Shown piece after piece: positions 26,780 to 59,609 of a DNA stretch of 64,000 nt; positions within the stretch are counted from its first letter, which is position 1, and each line of letters opens with the position of its first letter. Origin of the DNA: Eubacteriales bacterium (GTDB taxonomy: Bacteria; Bacillota; Clostridia; Christensenellales; CAG-314); the NCBI GenBank assembly GCA_035446985.1, contig DAOTGG010000001.1, positions 17,981 through 81,980 of the forward strand, given 5' to 3'. The notes under the pieces were generated by a model. That model made no database searches and was not told where the DNA came from. It worked only from the letters and a program-made list of their open reading frames with translations. The position numbers and the translations under genes are program-made.

Positions 26780-26903
26780 ATATATATTTAATAATTTTTT
26801 TGCGAAAGCGTAATATACCCAATAATTTCCACACTTATAACCGTTGATATTTCCGCCCGATAAGCACACTAACTAAGTAAATACTTAAGCGGAGGTAATT
26901 CAG

Positions 26904-27044
26904 GTGAAAATGAAAAATTTTTTGATAGGAATGGCTTTGGGAATTGCTGCGGGTATGTGCTTGGCTGAAATTCCCGCCGTAAGAAACTTTATCGCGACGG
27001 GCAAGAAGAAAATCAAAAAAATGGTCAAAGCCAAAGAAGACTAA
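26904..27044 (+). CDS. Small (about 46 aa) single-pass membrane protein, below the ORF-track length cutoff
   Basis: GGAGG RBS at 26891-26895, 8 nt before GTG 26904 (alternative ATG at 26910). Translation KMKNFLIGMALGIAAGMCLAEIPAVRNFIATGKKKIKKMVKAKED: one hydrophobic helix plus a Lys-rich tail. A hairpin follows the stop codon. Confidence 0.45.
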   Translation: MKMKNFLIGMALGIAAGMCLAEIPAVRNFIATGKKKIKKMVKAKED

Positions 27045-27052
27045 TAAATTTT

Positions 27053-27080
27053 AGGGGCAAAAAACTTGCCCTTAAATTTT
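27053..27080 (+). terminator. Weak intrinsic terminator after the small TM ORF
   Basis: AGGGGCAA (27053-27060) pairs with TTGCCCTT (27066-27073, one G-U pair), followed by AAATTTTT. The T-run is interrupted. Confidence 0.4.
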
Positions 27081-27127
27081 TCACTAAAACGCTACCATAT
27101 TTTGGCTGTATATGATACAATGCTGCT

Positions 27128-48300: not shown

Positions 48301-48333
48301 AACGGATTTGTTTAAAACAAGTCCGTTTTTTTT
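48301..48333 (+). terminator. Intrinsic terminator after efp
   Basis: AACGGATTTGTT (48301-48312) pairs with AACAAGTCCGTT (48316-48327, one G-U pair), followed by an 8-T run. Confidence 0.8.
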
Positions 48334-48550
48334 ATTACAAAATTTTATTCTGAAAGTTGTATTAAGCTGCACGATTGAATGGGGGTTCATTAGGTCGCAA
48401 ATTCAATTCCAGTCATGCAAACAAATGGGGTGTTTTTTAGCATTAAATTTTTTAAACTTTTTCTTTTTCAAAAGTACTTTTAATTTTAACTATTTTTTTT
48501 ATAACTCGTTTGCTTATCATAAACAATTTTTTTTTACCATAAATTACAGT

Positions 48551-49423
48551 ATGAATTTAAGATTTTTGCCGCAGGAATGGCTGACCGCTTTGGGCAAAAT
48601 CGAGGCGGACAAGCTTAATGAAATACGGCTGAGAGCAAATCAGCCTACCGTCGTGTGCGTCGGGGGAAAAAAGTTTTATCTGAACGAAAGCGGAATTAGC
48701 CTAAGCTCGGATAATGCTCTAACAGCCACGAATCAAATTTTGGAACGCATACTTTTGGCGGCTTGTCAAAAGTCCATTTACGCTTACAATTTTCAAATAG
48801 TGCAAGGATATCTGTCCGTTGAGGGAGGAATAAGGATAGGCGTATGCGGAAACGTGACGTCGGAAAACGGAAAAATCTTAGCTATAAAAGAAATTTCCGC
48901 TTTGAATATCCGAATACCGCACGTAGTTAAAGACTGTTCAAAAGCGGTACTAAAACACCTAAAACCGCTTTGTAATCTACTGGTTGTTTCCCCGCCGGGC
49001 TGCGGCAAGACCACGTTTTTGAGAGACCTGATATTTCAGCATATGGAAAAACGCGTTAATATTCTGCTTTGCGATGAGCGTAACGAAATATCGGCAAGTG
49101 TAGGCGGAGCGTCTACATTTGGACTGAGCGATTGCGATATTTACGTTTACGGCGAAAAATCCTATGTATTTGAAGCGGGCATAAGAAGTATGAGCCCCGA
49201 GCTTATCGTGTGCGACGAAATTTTGCCTTCCGATATGAGTTATATCACCGCCGCCGCCCAAAGCGGCGTCAACGTGTTTGCTTCAATGCACGGCAGAGAC
49301 GTCATCGAAGTCACGCAAAAGATAGGCTCTAATACGGTTTTTGACAGATACGTCGTGCTTTCAAACAGAAGCGGTGTCGGCACGCTTGAAGGTGTTTTTG
49401 ATAAAGACTTAAAGAAAATCTAA
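48551..49423 (+). CDS. spoIIIAA: Stage III sporulation protein AA (AAA+ ATPase)
   Basis: Start trimmed from TTG 48308 to ATG 48551; the upstream part of the ORF is AT-rich low-complexity. LNEIRLRANQP, Walker A SPPGCGKTTFLRDL, Walker B ELIVCDEI. First gene of an eight-gene spoIIIA array. Confidence 0.85.
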   Translation: MNLRFLPQEWLTALGKIEADKLNEIRLRANQPTVVCVGGKKFYLNESGISLSSDNALTATNQILERILLAACQKSIYAYNFQIVQGYLSVEGGIRIGVCGNVTSENGKILAIKEISALNIRIPHVVKDCSKAVLKHLKPLCNLLVVSPPGCGKTTFLRDLIFQHMEKRVNILLCDERNEISASVGGASTFGLSDCDIYVYGEKSYVFEAGIRSMSPELIVCDEILPSDMSYITAAAQSGVNVFASMHGRDVIEVTQKIGSNTVFDRYVVLSNRSGVGTLEGVFDKDLKKI

Positions 49424-49474
49424 CCGTAATTAATATTTTTAAGGCAAATGCCCTTAAACGAATAGGAAGAAAAA

Positions 49475-49990
49475 ATGAAAATTTTGCTTGGCATAATGGG
49501 AATTTTGGTCAGCGCGATTATCGGCGCGAAACTGTCGGAAAAATATAAGCGCAAAGAGCGGTTTTATTTCGATATTTTGTCTTTTTGCACTAGCTTTAGG
49601 GCGAACTTAGGCTTTCGCAGGTCGACGGTCGCGGAAGTCCTGGCGGAGAGCGGATACGACGACGATTTTAAAACATATGCGGAAAACGCGCTTATTTTAA
49701 GGAAAATCCCTAACGTTCAACCAATCGTAACAGCGGAAAAACCGCAAAAAAACGGCTTGAAAACAAACAAAAACCGTATGTTTTCAGAACAGGAAACGGT
49801 ATATATTGAAAAATTTTTCGATATATTAGGCGCGGGTGACGCAGACAGCCAGGACAGAGAAATAGGCTTTTACGAAAAATATTTTGAAAGAAAACTAACA
49901 GAAGCGCAGGAAACCGCAAAACAGCGCGCCCCGATGACAATGAAAATAAGCATTTTATGCGGATTCCTTTTTTGCGTTTTTTTGATTTAG
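49475..49990 (+). CDS. spoIIIAB: Stage III sporulation protein AB
   Basis: 171 aa. N- and C-terminal TM helices flank a soluble domain. Second position of the spoIIIA operon. Confidence 0.7.
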   Translation: MKILLGIMGILVSAIIGAKLSEKYKRKERFYFDILSFCTSFRANLGFRRSTVAEVLAESGYDDDFKTYAENALILRKIPNVQPIVTAEKPQKNGLKTNKNRMFSEQETVYIEKFFDILGAGDADSQDREIGFYEKYFERKLTEAQETAKQRAPMTMKISILCGFLFCVFLI

Positions 49991-50109
49991 ACAATATAAG
50001 AAAAAAATCAAATTTGTTATTTGATTGTCAATTTTTCAACATATCTAATCGAAAACAAGCAATTTTACAGCTGAAAAGCAAATAAATTCAAGGAGAACGG
50101 TGGCAGTAT

Positions 50110-50304
50110 ATGGGTATCGAAATTATTTTTAAGCTAGCGGGAATAGGGCTTGTGACTGCGATTGTGTGTATGCTTCTTAAACGCAGCGGCAAGGAAGAAA
50201 TGGCTACTCTTACGGGCGTAGCAGGTCTTGTGCTGGGACTTATTATATTGATTGATATGGTAGTGCAGTTGTTTTCCGCGCTTCAATCGCTGTTCGGTTA
50301 CTAA
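50110..50304 (+). CDS. spoIIIAC: Stage III sporulation protein AC
   Basis: 64 aa two-TM protein (IFKLAGIGLVTAIVCMLLKRSGKEEMA...). Correct size and operon position. Confidence 0.85.
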   Translation: MGIEIIFKLAGIGLVTAIVCMLLKRSGKEEMATLTGVAGLVLGLIILIDMVVQLFSALQSLFGY

Positions 50305-50307
50305 AAA

Positions 50308-50694
50308 ATGGATTTTATTCAGATAGTCATTATCGCCATTATCGCGGTCTCTGCAACGCTCGTCATACGCCAAATAAACCCCGAAATGTCGCTTTTGATA
50401 GGGGTCGGAAGCGGCGTTTTGGTCTTAATTTTAGTGTTGGACGAGCTGTACGAAGTCGTTTACGCTTTTTACAATATAGCGAAGATTTCAGGCGTAAACA
50501 ATTCGCTTTTTTCCACGATTTTAAAAATCATAGGTATCGGCTATCTGGCGGAATTCGGCAACAGTATTTGCGTGGACGCGAACGCGAAAAGCCTGGGGGA
50601 CAAGCTCCTGCTGGCTGGCAAAGTGGTGATTTTGGTAATGGCTTTGCCTATTATTATGCAGCTTATTCAAACGATTATGGAACTTGCTCCATAA
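50308..50694 (+). CDS. spoIIIAD: Stage III sporulation protein AD
   Basis: 128 aa polytopic membrane protein (...IGIGYLAEFGNSICVDANAKSLGDKLLLAGKV...). Operon position. Confidence 0.85.
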   Translation: MDFIQIVIIAIIAVSATLVIRQINPEMSLLIGVGSGVLVLILVLDELYEVVYAFYNIAKISGVNNSLFSTILKIIGIGYLAEFGNSICVDANAKSLGDKLLLAGKVVILVMALPIIMQLIQTIMELAP

Positions 50695-50710
50695 CCTTTT
50701 TAAAACAAAA

Positions 50711-51892
50711 ATGATTGCGCCGTTTATAAAAACAAATCGAATAAAAATATTTTTAGTCTTTTGTCTTGTTATTATAGTAGCTATGATTTTTTTGCCGAAC
50801 ACAGCTTTTGCAGACGAGGACGAGCTTACCACGCTCACCGAAGAGCAAGGCAACGCTATTGACTGGGACGAGCTGGAAGACTTTTTGGATTCGCTGGAAA
50901 GCGGCGTCAACGATAAATCCGCTTTTGAACTATTCAGCGCGCTTATTCACGGCGAATACACGGTGGGTAGCGGCGACTTTGCAAAATACGTTTTTGAAAT
51001 ATTTTTTTCAAGACTCGCTTCCGCTTTGCCGTCGATACTGACTATCGTTGCCGTTGCGGCTTTATGCGGACTTTTGGCGAAAAACAAGTCGACTGTTTTT
51101 GGAAAGTCAACGGGCGAGCTAGTGTTTTTCGTATGCTTTTCAGTAATAATCATAACGACACTCGCCTATGTGTGGACCTATGTGGAAAGCACGAAAGAAG
51201 CGTTAATCCGAGTAAAAACCTTGATAAATATAGTTATGCCCACGCTATTGGCTTTTATGGCGGCTATCGGCTCAAAAGTGGCTTTGTCGGTATATCAGCC
51301 CGCGGTAGCGTTACTGGCAAACGGCATAATAGAGATAGCTTGCAACGTGATTATGCCCTTGATTATTATCGCTTTTGTGTTTTCGGTAGTATCTAATCTT
51401 TCTAACGACGTCAGGCTCGATAAAATCACAACTTTCTTTAAAAACTTCGCCATGGCTTTGTTTGGAATAGCATTCACGGTATTTTCAGCTTTTTTGACTG
51501 TGCAGGGAATAAACGCAAACGTTTTTGACAGCGTTTCGTTAAGAGCCGCAAAATACGCCACAAAAAACTATATTCCTATAGTCGGCGGTTATCTGGCGGA
51601 AGGGCTTGACCTAGTTATGGCCAGCTCGGTACTCGTTAAAAACGCTTTCGGAGTGGTGGCTTTGCTTATGTTGGGGGCTATAATCGTTATTCCAGTAGTT
51701 GAGCTAGTCGTGTTCAATCTGCTTATGCAGCTTGCAGCGGGCATAATTGAGCCGATAACCGACGAGCGGATAGTCAAGTTTTTAACAGCTATTTCAAAAA
51801 ATATGATGCTGCTTGTCGTGCTTATTTTGGGAGTGGCTTTGATGCTTTTCGTCGTGATTTTACTGATTATTTCTACGGCTAACGTTTTTTGA
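50711..51892 (+). CDS. spoIIIAE: Stage III sporulation protein AE
   Basis: The ORF is open from TTG 50684; ATG 50711 gives a signal-peptide-like N-terminus (MIAPFIKTNRIKIFLVFCLVIIVAMIFLPNTAFA/DEDE). Large polytopic membrane protein. The start site is uncertain. Confidence 0.85.
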   Translation: MIAPFIKTNRIKIFLVFCLVIIVAMIFLPNTAFADEDELTTLTEEQGNAIDWDELEDFLDSLESGVNDKSAFELFSALIHGEYTVGSGDFAKYVFEIFFSRLASALPSILTIVAVAALCGLLAKNKSTVFGKSTGELVFFVCFSVIIITTLAYVWTYVESTKEALIRVKTLINIVMPTLLAFMAAIGSKVALSVYQPAVALLANGIIEIACNVIMPLIIIAFVFSVVSNLSNDVRLDKITTFFKNFAMALFGIAFTVFSAFLTVQGINANVFDSVSLRAAKYATKNYIPIVGGYLAEGLDLVMASSVLVKNAFGVVALLMLGAIIVIPVVELVVFNLLMQLAAGIIEPITDERIVKFLTAISKNMMLLVVLILGVALMLFVVILLIISTANVF

Positions 51893-51905
51893 GGAGCAAA
51901 AAATT

Positions 51906-52373
51906 ATGGGTATATGGATAATTTCCGTAACGGGTATCGTGGCTTTGACTTTACTTGTGGACATTATTTTGCCCGAAGGGGAGTCAAATAAATATGTAAA
52001 AGCGGTGATGTCGATATTGACGACTTTCGTTTTAATACAGCCGCTGCCGGGGGTTTTGTCGGAAAATTTTGACGTCGGAGAGTATTTTGAAATAGATACG
52101 GTTTCGGCTGACGCAGGTTTATCAAGTAAACTCGACGACATTAAAACAGATTACTGGGAAAACACCATAACCGCCGTTTTGAATAGCAACGGAGTGAAAA
52201 ACGCCGATATAAAAGTGGTTTTGGACGAAGAAAAGGACTTTGTCGTAAAGGTTTATTTGCAAAATATAGTAATAGCGGACAACCAAAATCATATATTTAT
52301 TACTAAGTTGATAACGCAGATTTTTGAAGATAAGCTTGGAATATCCGCTGAAAGGATTAGTTTTTATGATTAG
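51906..52373 (+). CDS. spoIIIAF: Stage III sporulation protein AF
   Basis: 155 aa. Two N-terminal TM helices with the LLVDIILPEGESNKYVKAVMSIL motif. GAGGAG RBS. Confidence 0.75.
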   Translation: MGIWIISVTGIVALTLLVDIILPEGESNKYVKAVMSILTTFVLIQPLPGVLSENFDVGEYFEIDTVSADAGLSSKLDDIKTDYWENTITAVLNSNGVKNADIKVVLDEEKDFVVKVYLQNIVIADNQNHIFITKLITQIFEDKLGISAERISFYD

Positions 52374-52848
52374 AGAATTTTGGGAAAAAATCAAAAAAAT
52401 TAAACACATAGAAATCTACGCCGCAATAATTTTATGCGTCGCCGCTCTTGTCGTATTTTTTGCGGATTTCGGCGGAAACACGACTACAGTCGTCACGGAA
52501 GAAAACTGGGAAGAACAGATATTATCTAACGTTACCGAAATAGTTTCTAATATCGAGGGAGTAGGCAAAGTCAGTATCGCTATTACTTATGACAGCGGTC
52601 TTGTGAACGAATATCTATATGAAACTAAGACCGAAACAAACTCAGGCAGCACCACCAGCACGAGCGAGATAGTCAGCTATAAGGGCGAACCGATAGTATT
52701 AAGAGAATTATACCCCGCCATTAAAGGCGTCGTCGTTGTTGCGGAAGGCGGCGACAAAACGGAAGTAAAATACAAAATCATAAAAGCATTGGTTACACTA
52801 CTTGGTATTGACGGAAGTCAAATCGAAGTATTTGGATATAAAAAATAA
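52366..52848 (+). CDS. spoIIIAG: Stage III sporulation protein AG
   Basis: Start trimmed to ATG 52366 (overlaps the spoIIIAF stop). One TM helix, then a ring-building-motif-like domain ending in IKGVVVVAEGG...LLGIDGSQIEVF. Confidence 0.75.
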   Translation: MIREFWEKIKKIKHIEIYAAIILCVAALVVFFADFGGNTTTVVTEENWEEQILSNVTEIVSNIEGVGKVSIAITYDSGLVNEYLYETKTETNSGSTTSTSEIVSYKGEPIVLRELYPAIKGVVVVAEGGDKTEVKYKIIKALVTLLGIDGSQIEVFGYKK

Positions 52849-52864
52849 TTGGAGGATATTTTAA

Positions 52865-53350
52865 ATGTCAAAAAAGAAAAAAATCGTTCTGCTCGTGGCA
52901 ATGGTTGCCGTACTAGCGATTGCCGCTTTCGTAAATATTTGGCTGATCAATAACAGCAACACAGATGTTACCGGCGACGGCGACGCTGTGGTTACGGGTA
53001 ACTTTTTCAGCACTTACCGAACAGACAGACAGAACACCAGAAATTACGAAATAGAGCTGCTTGACGAAATCCTGGCTACAACAACGGAAGAGTACGCTCA
53101 AGCCAGAGAAGAGGCTATGGCTCAAAAACTCAAACTTATCGAAACAACGGAGCTGGAACTTTTGCTTGAAACAATGCTCAAAGCGCAAGGATTTACCGAC
53201 GCTGTCGTTTCTATCGGCACGAGCAGCCAAAACATCAACGTAATCGTTTCCGCTGACGAACTGACAAAAGAAGATACGGCGAAAATATACAATGTTATAA
53301 TAAGCGAAATCGAAACTACACCTGACTACATAAAAATATTGGCGATATAA
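52865..53350 (+). CDS. spoIIIAH: Stage III sporulation protein AH
   Basis: 161 aa. N-terminal TM anchor (KKKKIVLLVAMVAVLAIAAFVNIWL) and a C-terminal YscJ/FliF-like segment. Last gene of the array. GGAGG RBS. Confidence 0.7.
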   Translation: MSKKKKIVLLVAMVAVLAIAAFVNIWLINNSNTDVTGDGDAVVTGNFFSTYRTDRQNTRNYEIELLDEILATTTEEYAQAREEAMAQKLKLIETTELELLLETMLKAQGFTDAVVSIGTSSQNINVIVSADELTKEDTAKIYNVIISEIETTPDYIKILAI

Positions 53351-55543: not shown

Positions 55544-56323
55544 ATGTACGACGTAGAAAAAATAATCGATCAATATTTTCCAAAATTCGACGAAACTAAT
55601 ACAGCCTTAGTCGCGGCAAAATATGCTGTTGGCAGCGGCGGAAAACGCTTGCGCCCGACGTTTGCCCTAAACTGCGCCGATATGATAAAAGCTGTCGACG
55701 ATAAAGTAAAAAGGATTGCTGTTGCGATAGAATTTTTGCACACTTATTCGCTTATACACGACGACCTTCCAGCGATGGACGACGACGATATCAGGCGCGG
55801 AAAACCCAGCTGCCACATAGCTTTCGGCGAAGCTGCAGCCATTCTAGCGGGGGATGCATTACAAAATCTCGCTTTTGAAGTATTAGCGGATGTAGAAAAT
55901 TCGAGCGAAAATTATTTAAAAGCGATTAACTACATAGCAAAAATGAGCGGCGCGAGCGGTATGATATATGGTCAATGCCTTGATATCAGCGGAAACAATT
56001 TAAACGAAAAGCAGTATTTTAATATGATAAAGCATAAAACCGCAAATATGTTTATGGCGAGCGTGGTAGCTCCCGCTATTTATTTTGATATAGATAACGC
56101 CCAAATCGGCTTGCTGGAAAATTTTGCGGAAAATTACGGCATATTGTTTCAGATAGCGGACGACCTAACGGATAACGACGGCTGGGTAAATGAAAACAAA
56201 GATAGGGCGATTATTTTAACCAATAACGCTTATGATAACGCCTTAACAAGCCTGTCAATGCTCAAATACGACACAAAATATTTTGAGTCGGCATTGGAAA
56301 ACATTCACAGTAAATTGGCTTAA
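55544..56323 (+). CDS. ispA: Short-chain (E)-polyprenyl diphosphate synthase (FPP/GGPP synthase family), compact form
   Basis: 259 aa. GGKRLRP, first DDxxD LIHDDLPAMDDDDIRRGKP, second FQIADDLTD. The usual GK..G.D...K.T segment after the second motif is not recognisable. Confidence 0.85.
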   Translation: MYDVEKIIDQYFPKFDETNTALVAAKYAVGSGGKRLRPTFALNCADMIKAVDDKVKRIAVAIEFLHTYSLIHDDLPAMDDDDIRRGKPSCHIAFGEAAAILAGDALQNLAFEVLADVENSSENYLKAINYIAKMSGASGMIYGQCLDISGNNLNEKQYFNMIKHKTANMFMASVVAPAIYFDIDNAQIGLLENFAENYGILFQIADDLTDNDGWVNENKDRAIILTNNAYDNALTSLSMLKYDTKYFESALENIHSKLA

Positions 56324-56330
56324 TAGACAT

Positions 56331-56359
56331 TTGCATTTTTTTAAACAATATGCTATAAT
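56331..56359 (+). promoter_or_regulatory. Near-consensus sigma-A promoter driving the large ncRNA (TTGCAT-17-TATAAT with TGn)
   Basis: TTGCAT at 56331-56336, 17-nt spacer ending in TGc (56351-56353), TATAAT at 56354-56359. Starts 8 nt after the ispA stop. Confidence 0.7.
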
Positions 56360-56365
56360 CGGCAT

Positions 56366-56965
56366 AGAATATAGGTGGTGCAGTATTCTAGTCAGAACTC
56401 ATTGTGTTGAAGACGGGGTTAAACTATCGTCAAAGGGCACATCTATGAAGCTTCTGGTGTTGGCTTTCGTTGCCCAAACGGGGGTTGATGCTGGGAGATA
56501 AGGATAACGGGCCGGCCGTAACGGCATACGGCGCATGTGACCCGTTACCCGTGGAGACTCGAAGCGGTAGGCAAAAATTGTATTTATGCTTACTGCCCGA
56601 GATTAAACCTGCTATGCGGTGAACAAAAAGCTGTGTACAGAGTAGCCTGCTTTGAGCGAGAGCTTTGGGATTAGTGAACAACTGTGCGAATTGGCCAATT
56701 CAAACATGCGATTGCTCTATGAAATTTGTCTTGCAAAAGAAGCTAAATACAATGACTATGTGAAGGAAATCTTCTAGACTGCAACCCAGGTATTTCGGAG
56801 ATTATAGTACGGACTTAGTGGCGATTCAGTTGCGCCTTTGGTAACGAGGCGATACGGAATTTAAAAGGAAACTGCCCGATCGGCGACGACGGGTATTTCG
56901 TAGGGAAATCCTACTGAACCTATGCCGTAAGGTTTATCCGATTTATCACCACCTTTATTTTTTTA
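56366..56965 (+). ncRNA. ole: Large (about 600 nt) structured non-coding RNA, most likely OLE-class
   Basis: 668-nt gap with no RBS-preceded ORF, and G+C-richer than other spacers. 5' GGTGGTG (56374-80) pairs with 3' CACCACC (56947-53). Internal helices include 56505-11/56541-47, 56565-73/56587-95, 56875-78/56890-93, 56900-04/56910-14 and 56917-21/56930-34. The ispA-RNA-4TM protein-dxs-nadK-argR-recN context matches that described for OLE/oapA. End coordinates are approximate and no covariance model was run. Confidence 0.6.
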
Positions 56966-56991
56966 TATTTATAATTTTATTAGAGGAGTTT

Positions 56992-57636
56992 ATGTCTAAA
57001 AAAGACGCAGACCTGCCGGGGACTATCCCCGAAAAAACCATCGGTAAAAACGAAAAAAATGATAAAAACAAAAAGACCGACAAATCACGTCAGGACGGCA
57101 GTTGGATAATTATAGTACTGCTTTTGACGCTTGGTTTGTCGTTTCTAATTAGTTTTATTACCGAGCTTATTTATATGGCGATAGACGTTTCGCTGTGGCG
57201 TATATTTACCGCTACTATTTTGGTGCTTATAATTATCTTCATTAGCATTATTTCCGATATGATGGGGGTAGCGGCGACCGCCGCGGACGAAGAGCCATTT
57301 TTGGCTATGGCTTCACGCAAAATCAAAGGAGCTAAAAAAGCGGTAATGTTATGTAGAAACGCCGATAAAGTTTCGTCTATACTTAACGATATAATAGGCG
57401 ACGTTTGCGGTATTATATCGGGCGCGTCGGGCGCGGCTATTGCTGCCGTAGTAGTCTCAAAATACAGCAATATAAGTGCATTGGGCACGATATTTATCAG
57501 CGTTGCGGTTTCCGCTCTTATCGCTACGATAACGATAACGGGTAAAGCCGTAGCAAAACGTAACGCGACGAAAAACGCTAACGAAATAACGTTAAGTTTG
57601 GCTAAATTTTTGTCCATACTCGATAAGGACAAATAA
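56992..57636 (+). CDS. oapA: Four-TM membrane protein immediately downstream of the ncRNA, OapA-like (OLE-associated protein A)
   Basis: 214 aa. GAGGAG RBS. Lys-rich N-terminal region of about 35 aa, then four predicted TM helices (WIIIVLLLTLGLSFLISFI; IFTATILVLIIIFISIISDMMGV; IIGDVCGIISGASGAAIAAVVV; LGTIFISVAVSALIATITI). The assignment rests on position and topology. Confidence 0.6.
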   Translation: MSKKDADLPGTIPEKTIGKNEKNDKNKKTDKSRQDGSWIIIVLLLTLGLSFLISFITELIYMAIDVSLWRIFTATILVLIIIFISIISDMMGVAATAADEEPFLAMASRKIKGAKKAVMLCRNADKVSSILNDIIGDVCGIISGASGAAIAAVVVSKYSNISALGTIFISVAVSALIATITITGKAVAKRNATKNANEITLSLAKFLSILDKDK

Positions 57637-59490: not shown

Positions 59491-59580
59491 AATTTGATTT
59501 ATTATAAAATATTATTTAGCTATTTATAGATAAAAAAATATAATTACTAAACGAGATAACGATAAAATTTTGCGGAAATA

Positions 59581-59609
59581 TTGAATATTATTAACTTTTG
59601 TCGTATAAT
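59581..59609 (+). promoter_or_regulatory. Candidate sigma-A promoter for nadK-argR-recN (TTGAAT-17-TATAAT)
   Basis: TTGAAT at 59581-59586, 17-nt spacer, TATAAT at 59604-59609. Confidence 0.5.

Follow-up and report, generated by a model that had tools for sequence, protein, structure and literature searches.

The window considered here (the whole stretch of DNA analysed, 64,000 nt) contains genes in the order asp23-nusB-xseA-xseB-ispA-OLE-oapA-dxs-nadK-argR-recN-spoIVB, with efp, spoIIIAA-AH and asp23 further upstream of nusB. The ispA-like ORF, which encodes a polyprenyl synthetase/FPP synthase, stops at 56323 and the next ORF begins at 56992, leaving 668 nt between them on the + strand. An earlier note had drawn attention to the length of this gap, and it is the largest of the 67 that separate long + strand ORFs, of which the median is 16 nt and 18 are longer than 100 nt. 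The same note described the gap as richer in G+C than the AT-rich spacers elsewhere, and we find 45.2% G+C in the OLE RNA region, compared with 29.5% in intergenic DNA elsewhere and 41.9% over the window. The 107-nt dxs/nadK spacer (59491-59597) is very AT-rich, at 26-31% G+C in 300-nt windows. The second-largest gap (2139-2589) lies between acetate kinase-like and plsX-like ORFs, as judged from their translations, and was rejected as the site of a hidden RNA; it holds rpmF, a 63-aa ribosomal protein L32-like ORF (2231-2422) too short to pass the 90-aa ORF filter. A 348-nt gap running from a NifU-like gene to ruvX (26780-27127), which lacks + strand ORFs of at least 90 aa, was also rejected, yielding sub-threshold Rfam noise with a best score of 25.5 bits for RAGATH-23 against a cut-off of 92.6 bits.

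When the whole window was scanned against Rfam 15, the sole match at gathering thresholds was to RF01071 (OLE), at 56359-56968 on the + strand, and no riboswitch or leader families were matched. The score is 443.4 bits (E 6.5e-127) against a gathering threshold of 50 bits, and the match covers positions 1-616 of the 616-position model and is not truncated. The earlier note had assigned the RNA to the OLE class and had suggested this covariance model search; the assignment is upheld decisively by the full-length match, and also by the covariation, the synteny and the downstream oapA described below. We annotate an OLE RNA gene (ole) of the full-length type within the RF01071 limits, 56359..56968 (+), which gives 610 nt between model ends, or ~595 nt when counted from the predicted start through P1; the probable RNA spans ~56366 to ~56960-56968. 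We are close to certain that the 668-nt gap holds an ole gene specifying a full-length OLE RNA of ~600 nt, in a Clostridia-type genome from a spore former, and nothing argues against membership of the family. This copy is canonical and its family already known. OLE RNAs were first described in 2006 (Puerta-Fernandez et al. 2006). In Bacillota, 2,822 representatives have been mapped (Fernando & Breaker 2024, PMC11332333).

Comparison loci, numbering at least 120, were taken from a metagenome scan by exact match to a conserved 20-nt OLE 5' motif, and the motif itself therefore cannot vary in this set. The alignment used throughout (A1) contains the window sequence and 86 distinct complete metagenomic OLE copies among the matches listed (n = 87), and was made with MAFFT such that it is sequence-based rather than structure-guided. 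The closest copy among the matches listed is 76% identical to that of the window. An OapA reference-genome scan was also tried as a source of sequences and was set aside, the sole relative returned being on a contig that starts within OLE. This closest reference genome (L001) is a 'Clostridia bacterium' MAG, contig DAOPIV010000032, of which positions 1-55 are 100% identical to window positions 56911-56965 whereas the flanking genes are 76-79% identical at the DNA level; the identity of these last 55 nt shows strong constraint on the OLE RNA.

The consensus that was evaluated on A1 is the Rfam structure transferred from the window sequence, and comprises 154 pairs in 25 helices with 86.4% of cells paired. 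The earlier note had proposed that its helices be examined for covariation, and double-sided (compensatory) changes are present at 123 of the 154 pairs. The covariation score is 0.488, compared with at most 0.127 for partners displaced by 1-3 columns, although we note that transferring the structure from the window sequence favours it somewhat in this control. None of 500 shuffles reached the observed pairing or covariation values. About 130 columns of A1 are invariant and a further ~90 nearly invariant, with the 20-nt motif invariant by selection, and the window carries them. The predicted folding energy is also lower than that of dinucleotide shuffles (MFE -191.3 kcal/mol versus -166.6 +/- 6.7; z = -3.69), and none of 100 shuffles was as stable as the OLE region.

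An alternative explanation for the gap is that it is coding sequence for a small protein or several, or that it is simply an unusually long spacer with chance structure. ORFs are present on both strands and, with TTG, GTG and ATG starts allowed, are only 41-83 aa long. No Shine-Dalgarno sequence was found upstream of any of them, in agreement with the earlier note, and only 0-9 of the 86 homologues keep them intact, so that a conserved ORF is lacking too and coding potential was rejected. Together with the E-value of the covariance model match and the 123 compensatory pairs, these observations already refute the explanation, to which we attach a negligible probability.

The published OLE model names stems P1 and P3 (PMC12265935), both of which are absent from the Rfam RF01071 annotation, and we examined them separately. 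The 5' strand of P1 (56368..56380, +) has a core GGUGGU at 56374-79 and a variable extension at 56368-73, and pairs with the 3' strand (C)ACCACCUUUAUU (56947..56959, +), which runs into a U-rich tail ending at ~56965; with the extension P1 would be 13 bp long. The core pairing of GGUGGU (56374-79) with ACCACC (56948-53) is nearly invariant in A1, the first pair outside it (column 16/806) is GC in 62 sequences but AU in another 11, and five further pairs, between 56368-73 and 56954-59, vary through AU, UA, GC and CG. The covariation score for P1 is 0.307, compared with no more than 0.195 for slid partners and with 0 of 500 shuffles reaching it, and the helix is present in both the MFE and centroid folds. 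The end pairing GGUGGUG/CACCACC of the earlier note thus stands for its six core pairs, which extend with covariation to 56368/56959, but its seventh pair, G56380-C56947, is doubtful, as C56947 covaries with 56789 in the helix closing the 3' domain. G56380 fits a different pairing, that of GCAGU (56380..56384, +) with ACUGC (56778-82), and both G56380 and C56947 more likely belong to other helices than P1. GCAGU and ACUGC are each present in 87 of 87 aligned sequences and are paired in the MFE fold; because the motifs are invariant their pairing is beyond the reach of covariation, and they are candidate strands of P2.

P3 is formed by 10 bp between UCAUUGUGUU (56399..56408, +) and AAUACAAUGA (56746..56755, +). 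The strand sequences diverge widely across 85 copies, and in a duplex energy test on these 85 sequences each strand was more stably paired with its own partner (mean -12.5 kcal/mol) than with swapped partners (-7.2 kcal/mol; p = 5e-28). P3 encloses P4-P9 and has been proposed to be a membrane-spanning helix (PMC12265935). We also note that an invariant UAGUCA at 56389-56394 is perfectly complementary to UGACUA at 56753-56758, overlapping the 3' strand of P3; this may reflect either an alternative pairing or chance.

Published stem numbers other than P1, P3 and P9 were assigned here by inference. A consensus hairpin of the Rfam model at 56412..56431 (+), with loop UUAAACUA (A-rich consensus CUAAAAAU), is 92-95% paired with compensatory changes in A1, and is probably P4 given the 'A-rich loop' described for that stem (PMC12265935). 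It is followed by four consensus stem-loops within 56451..56640 (+), at 56451-97, 56502-50 (with an inner hairpin at 56516-31), 56558-601 and 56609-40. Two helices recognized previously from the sequence, 56505-11/56541-47 and 56565-73/56587-95, lie within these and are both part of the Rfam consensus structure. The long composite arm P9 (56649..56743, +) carries at its tip the palindrome GAAUUGGCCAAUUC (56688-56701), in which the loop sequence UGGCCA is self-complementary; when OLE RNA dimerises, a symmetrical P9 loop is reported to form a kissing contact (PMC12265935). The distal part of the arm (56662-56728) has about 12 non-canonical positions relative to the model, with the palindromic tip intact, and is 41-57% paired in A1, where the MAFFT alignment is unreliable; the irregularity could reflect a register particular to this lineage, or several internal loops. 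The short 4-bp hairpin that the model has at positions 424-437 is absent here and is replaced by AACCCA at 56783-56788. It is missing likewise in several related loci (e.g. L029, L078, L079 and L094), and its loss looks like a sub-clade trait.

The 3' domain (56789..56947, +) is closed by an 11-bp helix (56789-99/56937-47) and contains the nested consensus helices 56808-12/56925-29 and 56825-30/56913-18 (+), together with consensus hairpins at 56832-52, 56853-902 and 56874-94 (+), the last with a GGCGAC loop. These helices (20-25) are 86-99.6% paired with many compensatory changes in A1. Two small hairpins listed in the earlier note, both lying in this domain, fared less well: both can form in the window's sequence, but neither is conserved and both clash with covarying consensus helices. 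For GUAGG/CCUAC at 56900-14, just the inner two G-C pairs are kept, with the outer three failing to pair in 48-68% of sequences; its bases are used by the strongly covarying consensus helices 22 and 24, and we reject it as a conserved element. AACCU/AGGUU at 56917-34 has zero compensatory changes, lacks its central C-G pairs in 45-63% of sequences and overlaps helices 21 and 22, and is likewise rejected.

Upstream of the RNA we identified a sigma-A-type promoter at 56330..56359 (+), with a -35 element TTTGCA (56330-35), an 18-nt spacer and a -10 element TATAAT (56354-59). A TG at 56351-52 completes a perfect extended -10 (TGcTATAAT, 56351-59), as the earlier description of a near-perfect promoter would have it, but the -35 is mediocre, with TTGCAT matching at 3/6 positions at a spacer of 17 or TTTGCA at 4/6 at a spacer of 18; a consensus scan gives 10/12 matches plus the TG. 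The TTTGCA-18-TGnTATAAT layout is common to the related loci L029 and L079, and among the matches listed 84 of 98 distinct OLE loci have a promoter-like site in the 70 nt preceding the RNA, compared with 8 of 77 coding controls, although this coding-region control is imperfect in that intergenic DNA is AT-rich. In B. halodurans, ole is reported to have its own promoter inside a larger operon (PMC9723947). From the position of the extended -10 we predict a start at ~56366, ~7 nt past the -10 and about two bases before the extended P1, such that the first transcribed bases would pair with the 3' end of the RNA as P1. A sequence scan found no intrinsic terminator between ispA and OLE or between OLE and oapA, so that read-through both into and out of ole is likely, with subsequent processing; OLE and oapA probably share a transcript, from which the stable RNA would be released by trimming.

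The lack of an intrinsic terminator at the OLE/oapA boundary, and the passage of the P1 3' strand into a U-rich tract just before the oapA ribosome-binding site, would also suit an RNA acting chiefly as a cis-acting leader, in the form of a long structured 5' UTR or attenuator that controls oapA-dxs expression, rather than as a stable trans-acting RNA. We consider this very improbable, as OLE RNAs are known as abundant species of ~600-630 nt that associate in trans with proteins (PMC9723947, PMC12265935), riboswitch and leader families are unmatched, and 600 nt with ~25 helices is far beyond the needs of known leaders. A further reading is that closing of P1 provides a long-range terminator-like or processing signal, which would define where OLE ends and let read-through into oapA-dxs depend on whether the whole 600-nt RNA is correctly folded. 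It is prompted by the promoter, which would start the transcript at approximately P1, and by the meeting of the P1 3' strand with the U-tract ~25 nt before the oapA start; we regard it as speculative and improbable.

The ORF directly 3' of OLE, oapA (56992..57636, +), is preceded by the Shine-Dalgarno sequence AGAGGAG (56982..56988, +) and encodes a 214-aa membrane protein that we identify as an OapA orthologue. A homologue with 32-49% identity lies directly 3' of OLE and on the same strand in 67 of the 71 loci with room for it, among the matches listed, and this recurrence supports the identification. No Pfam (E <=0.001) or NCBIfam (E <=0.01) family was matched, and with a relaxed cut-off the protein matches PF01595 (CNNM) with an E-value of 0.0013 and 18.9 bits, below the 28.4-bit gathering score. 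Kyte-Doolittle analysis gives four hydrophobic segments, within residues 34-99 (two overlapping), 134-156 and 159-188, and the sequence DIIGD is present at residue 133. The published OapA is a membrane protein with four helices and is described as a distant relative of the MpfA/CNNM transporters (PMC12265935); the four segments, the DIIGD and the sub-threshold CNNM match agree with the published description and further support the assignment of this ORF as oapA.

The wider neighbourhood is as had been described for OLE in the earlier note, with nusB, xseA, xseB and ispA on one side and OapA, dxs, NAD kinase, argR and recN on the other, and it recurs elsewhere. Among the matches listed, and counting loci with enough flanking DNA, ispA is upstream of OLE in 74 of 100 loci and xseA in 39 of 56, and downstream are dxs in 44 of 51, argR in 19 of 28 and recN in 18 of 21. 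Mention of ispA or dxs beside ole was not found in the full-text literature searched, and the synteny was tested directly instead. The oapB and oapC genes normally lie elsewhere in the genome than ole, and neither was found among the ten small ORFs scanned within the 64-kb window. The spoIIIA operon (48308-53350) lies just upstream of asp23-nusB, with AA, AB, AC, AD, AE, AF and AH matched by Pfam, and its presence together with spoIVB after recN indicates that the host is an endospore former. The host belongs to the Bacillota and probably has the anaerobic or extremophilic lifestyle typical of OLE hosts.

In other species, OLE RNAs dimerise, bind OapA, OapB, OapC and bS21, and associate with the membrane, and strains lacking ole cope badly with alcohols, cold, excess Mg2+ and poor carbon sources (PMC12265935, PMC12286853). 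By analogy, the RNA described here would dimerise through loop contacts including that of the palindromic P9 loop and would bind the membrane protein OapA, as well as OapB and OapC, and the resulting membrane-associated ribonucleoprotein may help cells to withstand these stresses, with short-chain alcohols among them. We commit, as a proposal, to a model in which OLE RNA would be a regulatory and scaffolding subunit of an OapA-based membrane device akin to the CNNM/MpfA divalent-cation transporters, the RNA substituting for the soluble sensor domains that OapA is without. The main rival is that this OLE member acts principally as a ribozyme for some reaction rather than by scaffolding or regulating OapA. 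The discoverers have long held that an RNA so large, conserved and complex will usually be a ribozyme (PMC11332333, PMC12265935), and about a quarter of the positions in A1 are invariant or nearly so; yet no reaction or substrate has been reported, nothing in the window indicates a substrate, and recent work emphasises dimer architecture, protein partners and membrane association (PMC12265935, PMC12286853). The window's sequence favours neither explanation, and both the transmembrane topology of OLE and a ribozyme role are hypotheses in the field. On balance we judge a ribozyme unlikely, if the most serious of the alternatives, and prefer the scaffold or regulator model.

The main value of these observations is in annotation, as ole and oapA are easily overlooked by automated pipelines. 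OLE RNAs are intriguing as a class, being large, highly conserved, membrane-associated and possibly membrane-spanning, although this copy adds nothing special in that respect; it brings to comparative alignments a moderately divergent sequence, with no more than 76% identity to the copies among the matches listed. As a canonical copy in a canonical neighbourhood, its significance beyond correct annotation is small.

GOLLD, ROOL and the raiA motif are similarly large, highly structured non-coding RNAs without an assigned biochemical function, and GOLLD and ROOL also self-assemble (PMC12286853), but these RNAs are unrelated to OLE in sequence and fold, are unmatched in the window, and are neither linked to oapA nor membrane-associated. 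The MpfA proteins have been proposed as all-protein counterparts of the OLE-OapA complex (PMC12265935), and the window's OapA gives a weak match to the CNNM transmembrane domain, below the Pfam threshold; it differs from the MpfA/CNNM transporters in being without CBS and CorC domains and is not a formal member of that family. Among OLE RNAs themselves, variant 1 has shortened P7-P9 and is often without the OapB site, and variant 2 is without P7 and P8 (PMC11332333). The window's copy has the conserved core nucleotides in common with both variants, but its stems at 56558-601, 56609-40 and 56649-743 are full length and the GGCGAC-loop hairpin (56874-94) is present; with all of the variant-defining stems present at full length, it is of the full-length type and not a variant. 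Compared with full-length OLE (RF01071; PMC11332333), it differs in lineage-level details only, namely the missing 424-437 hairpin and the imperfect distal P9, and it shares the 610-nt length, the conserved blocks and consensus helices, P1, P3 and the palindromic P9 loop, as well as an oapA adjoining its 3' end, the nusB-xseAB-ispA / dxs-nadK-argR-recN neighbourhood and a spore-forming host in the Bacillota.
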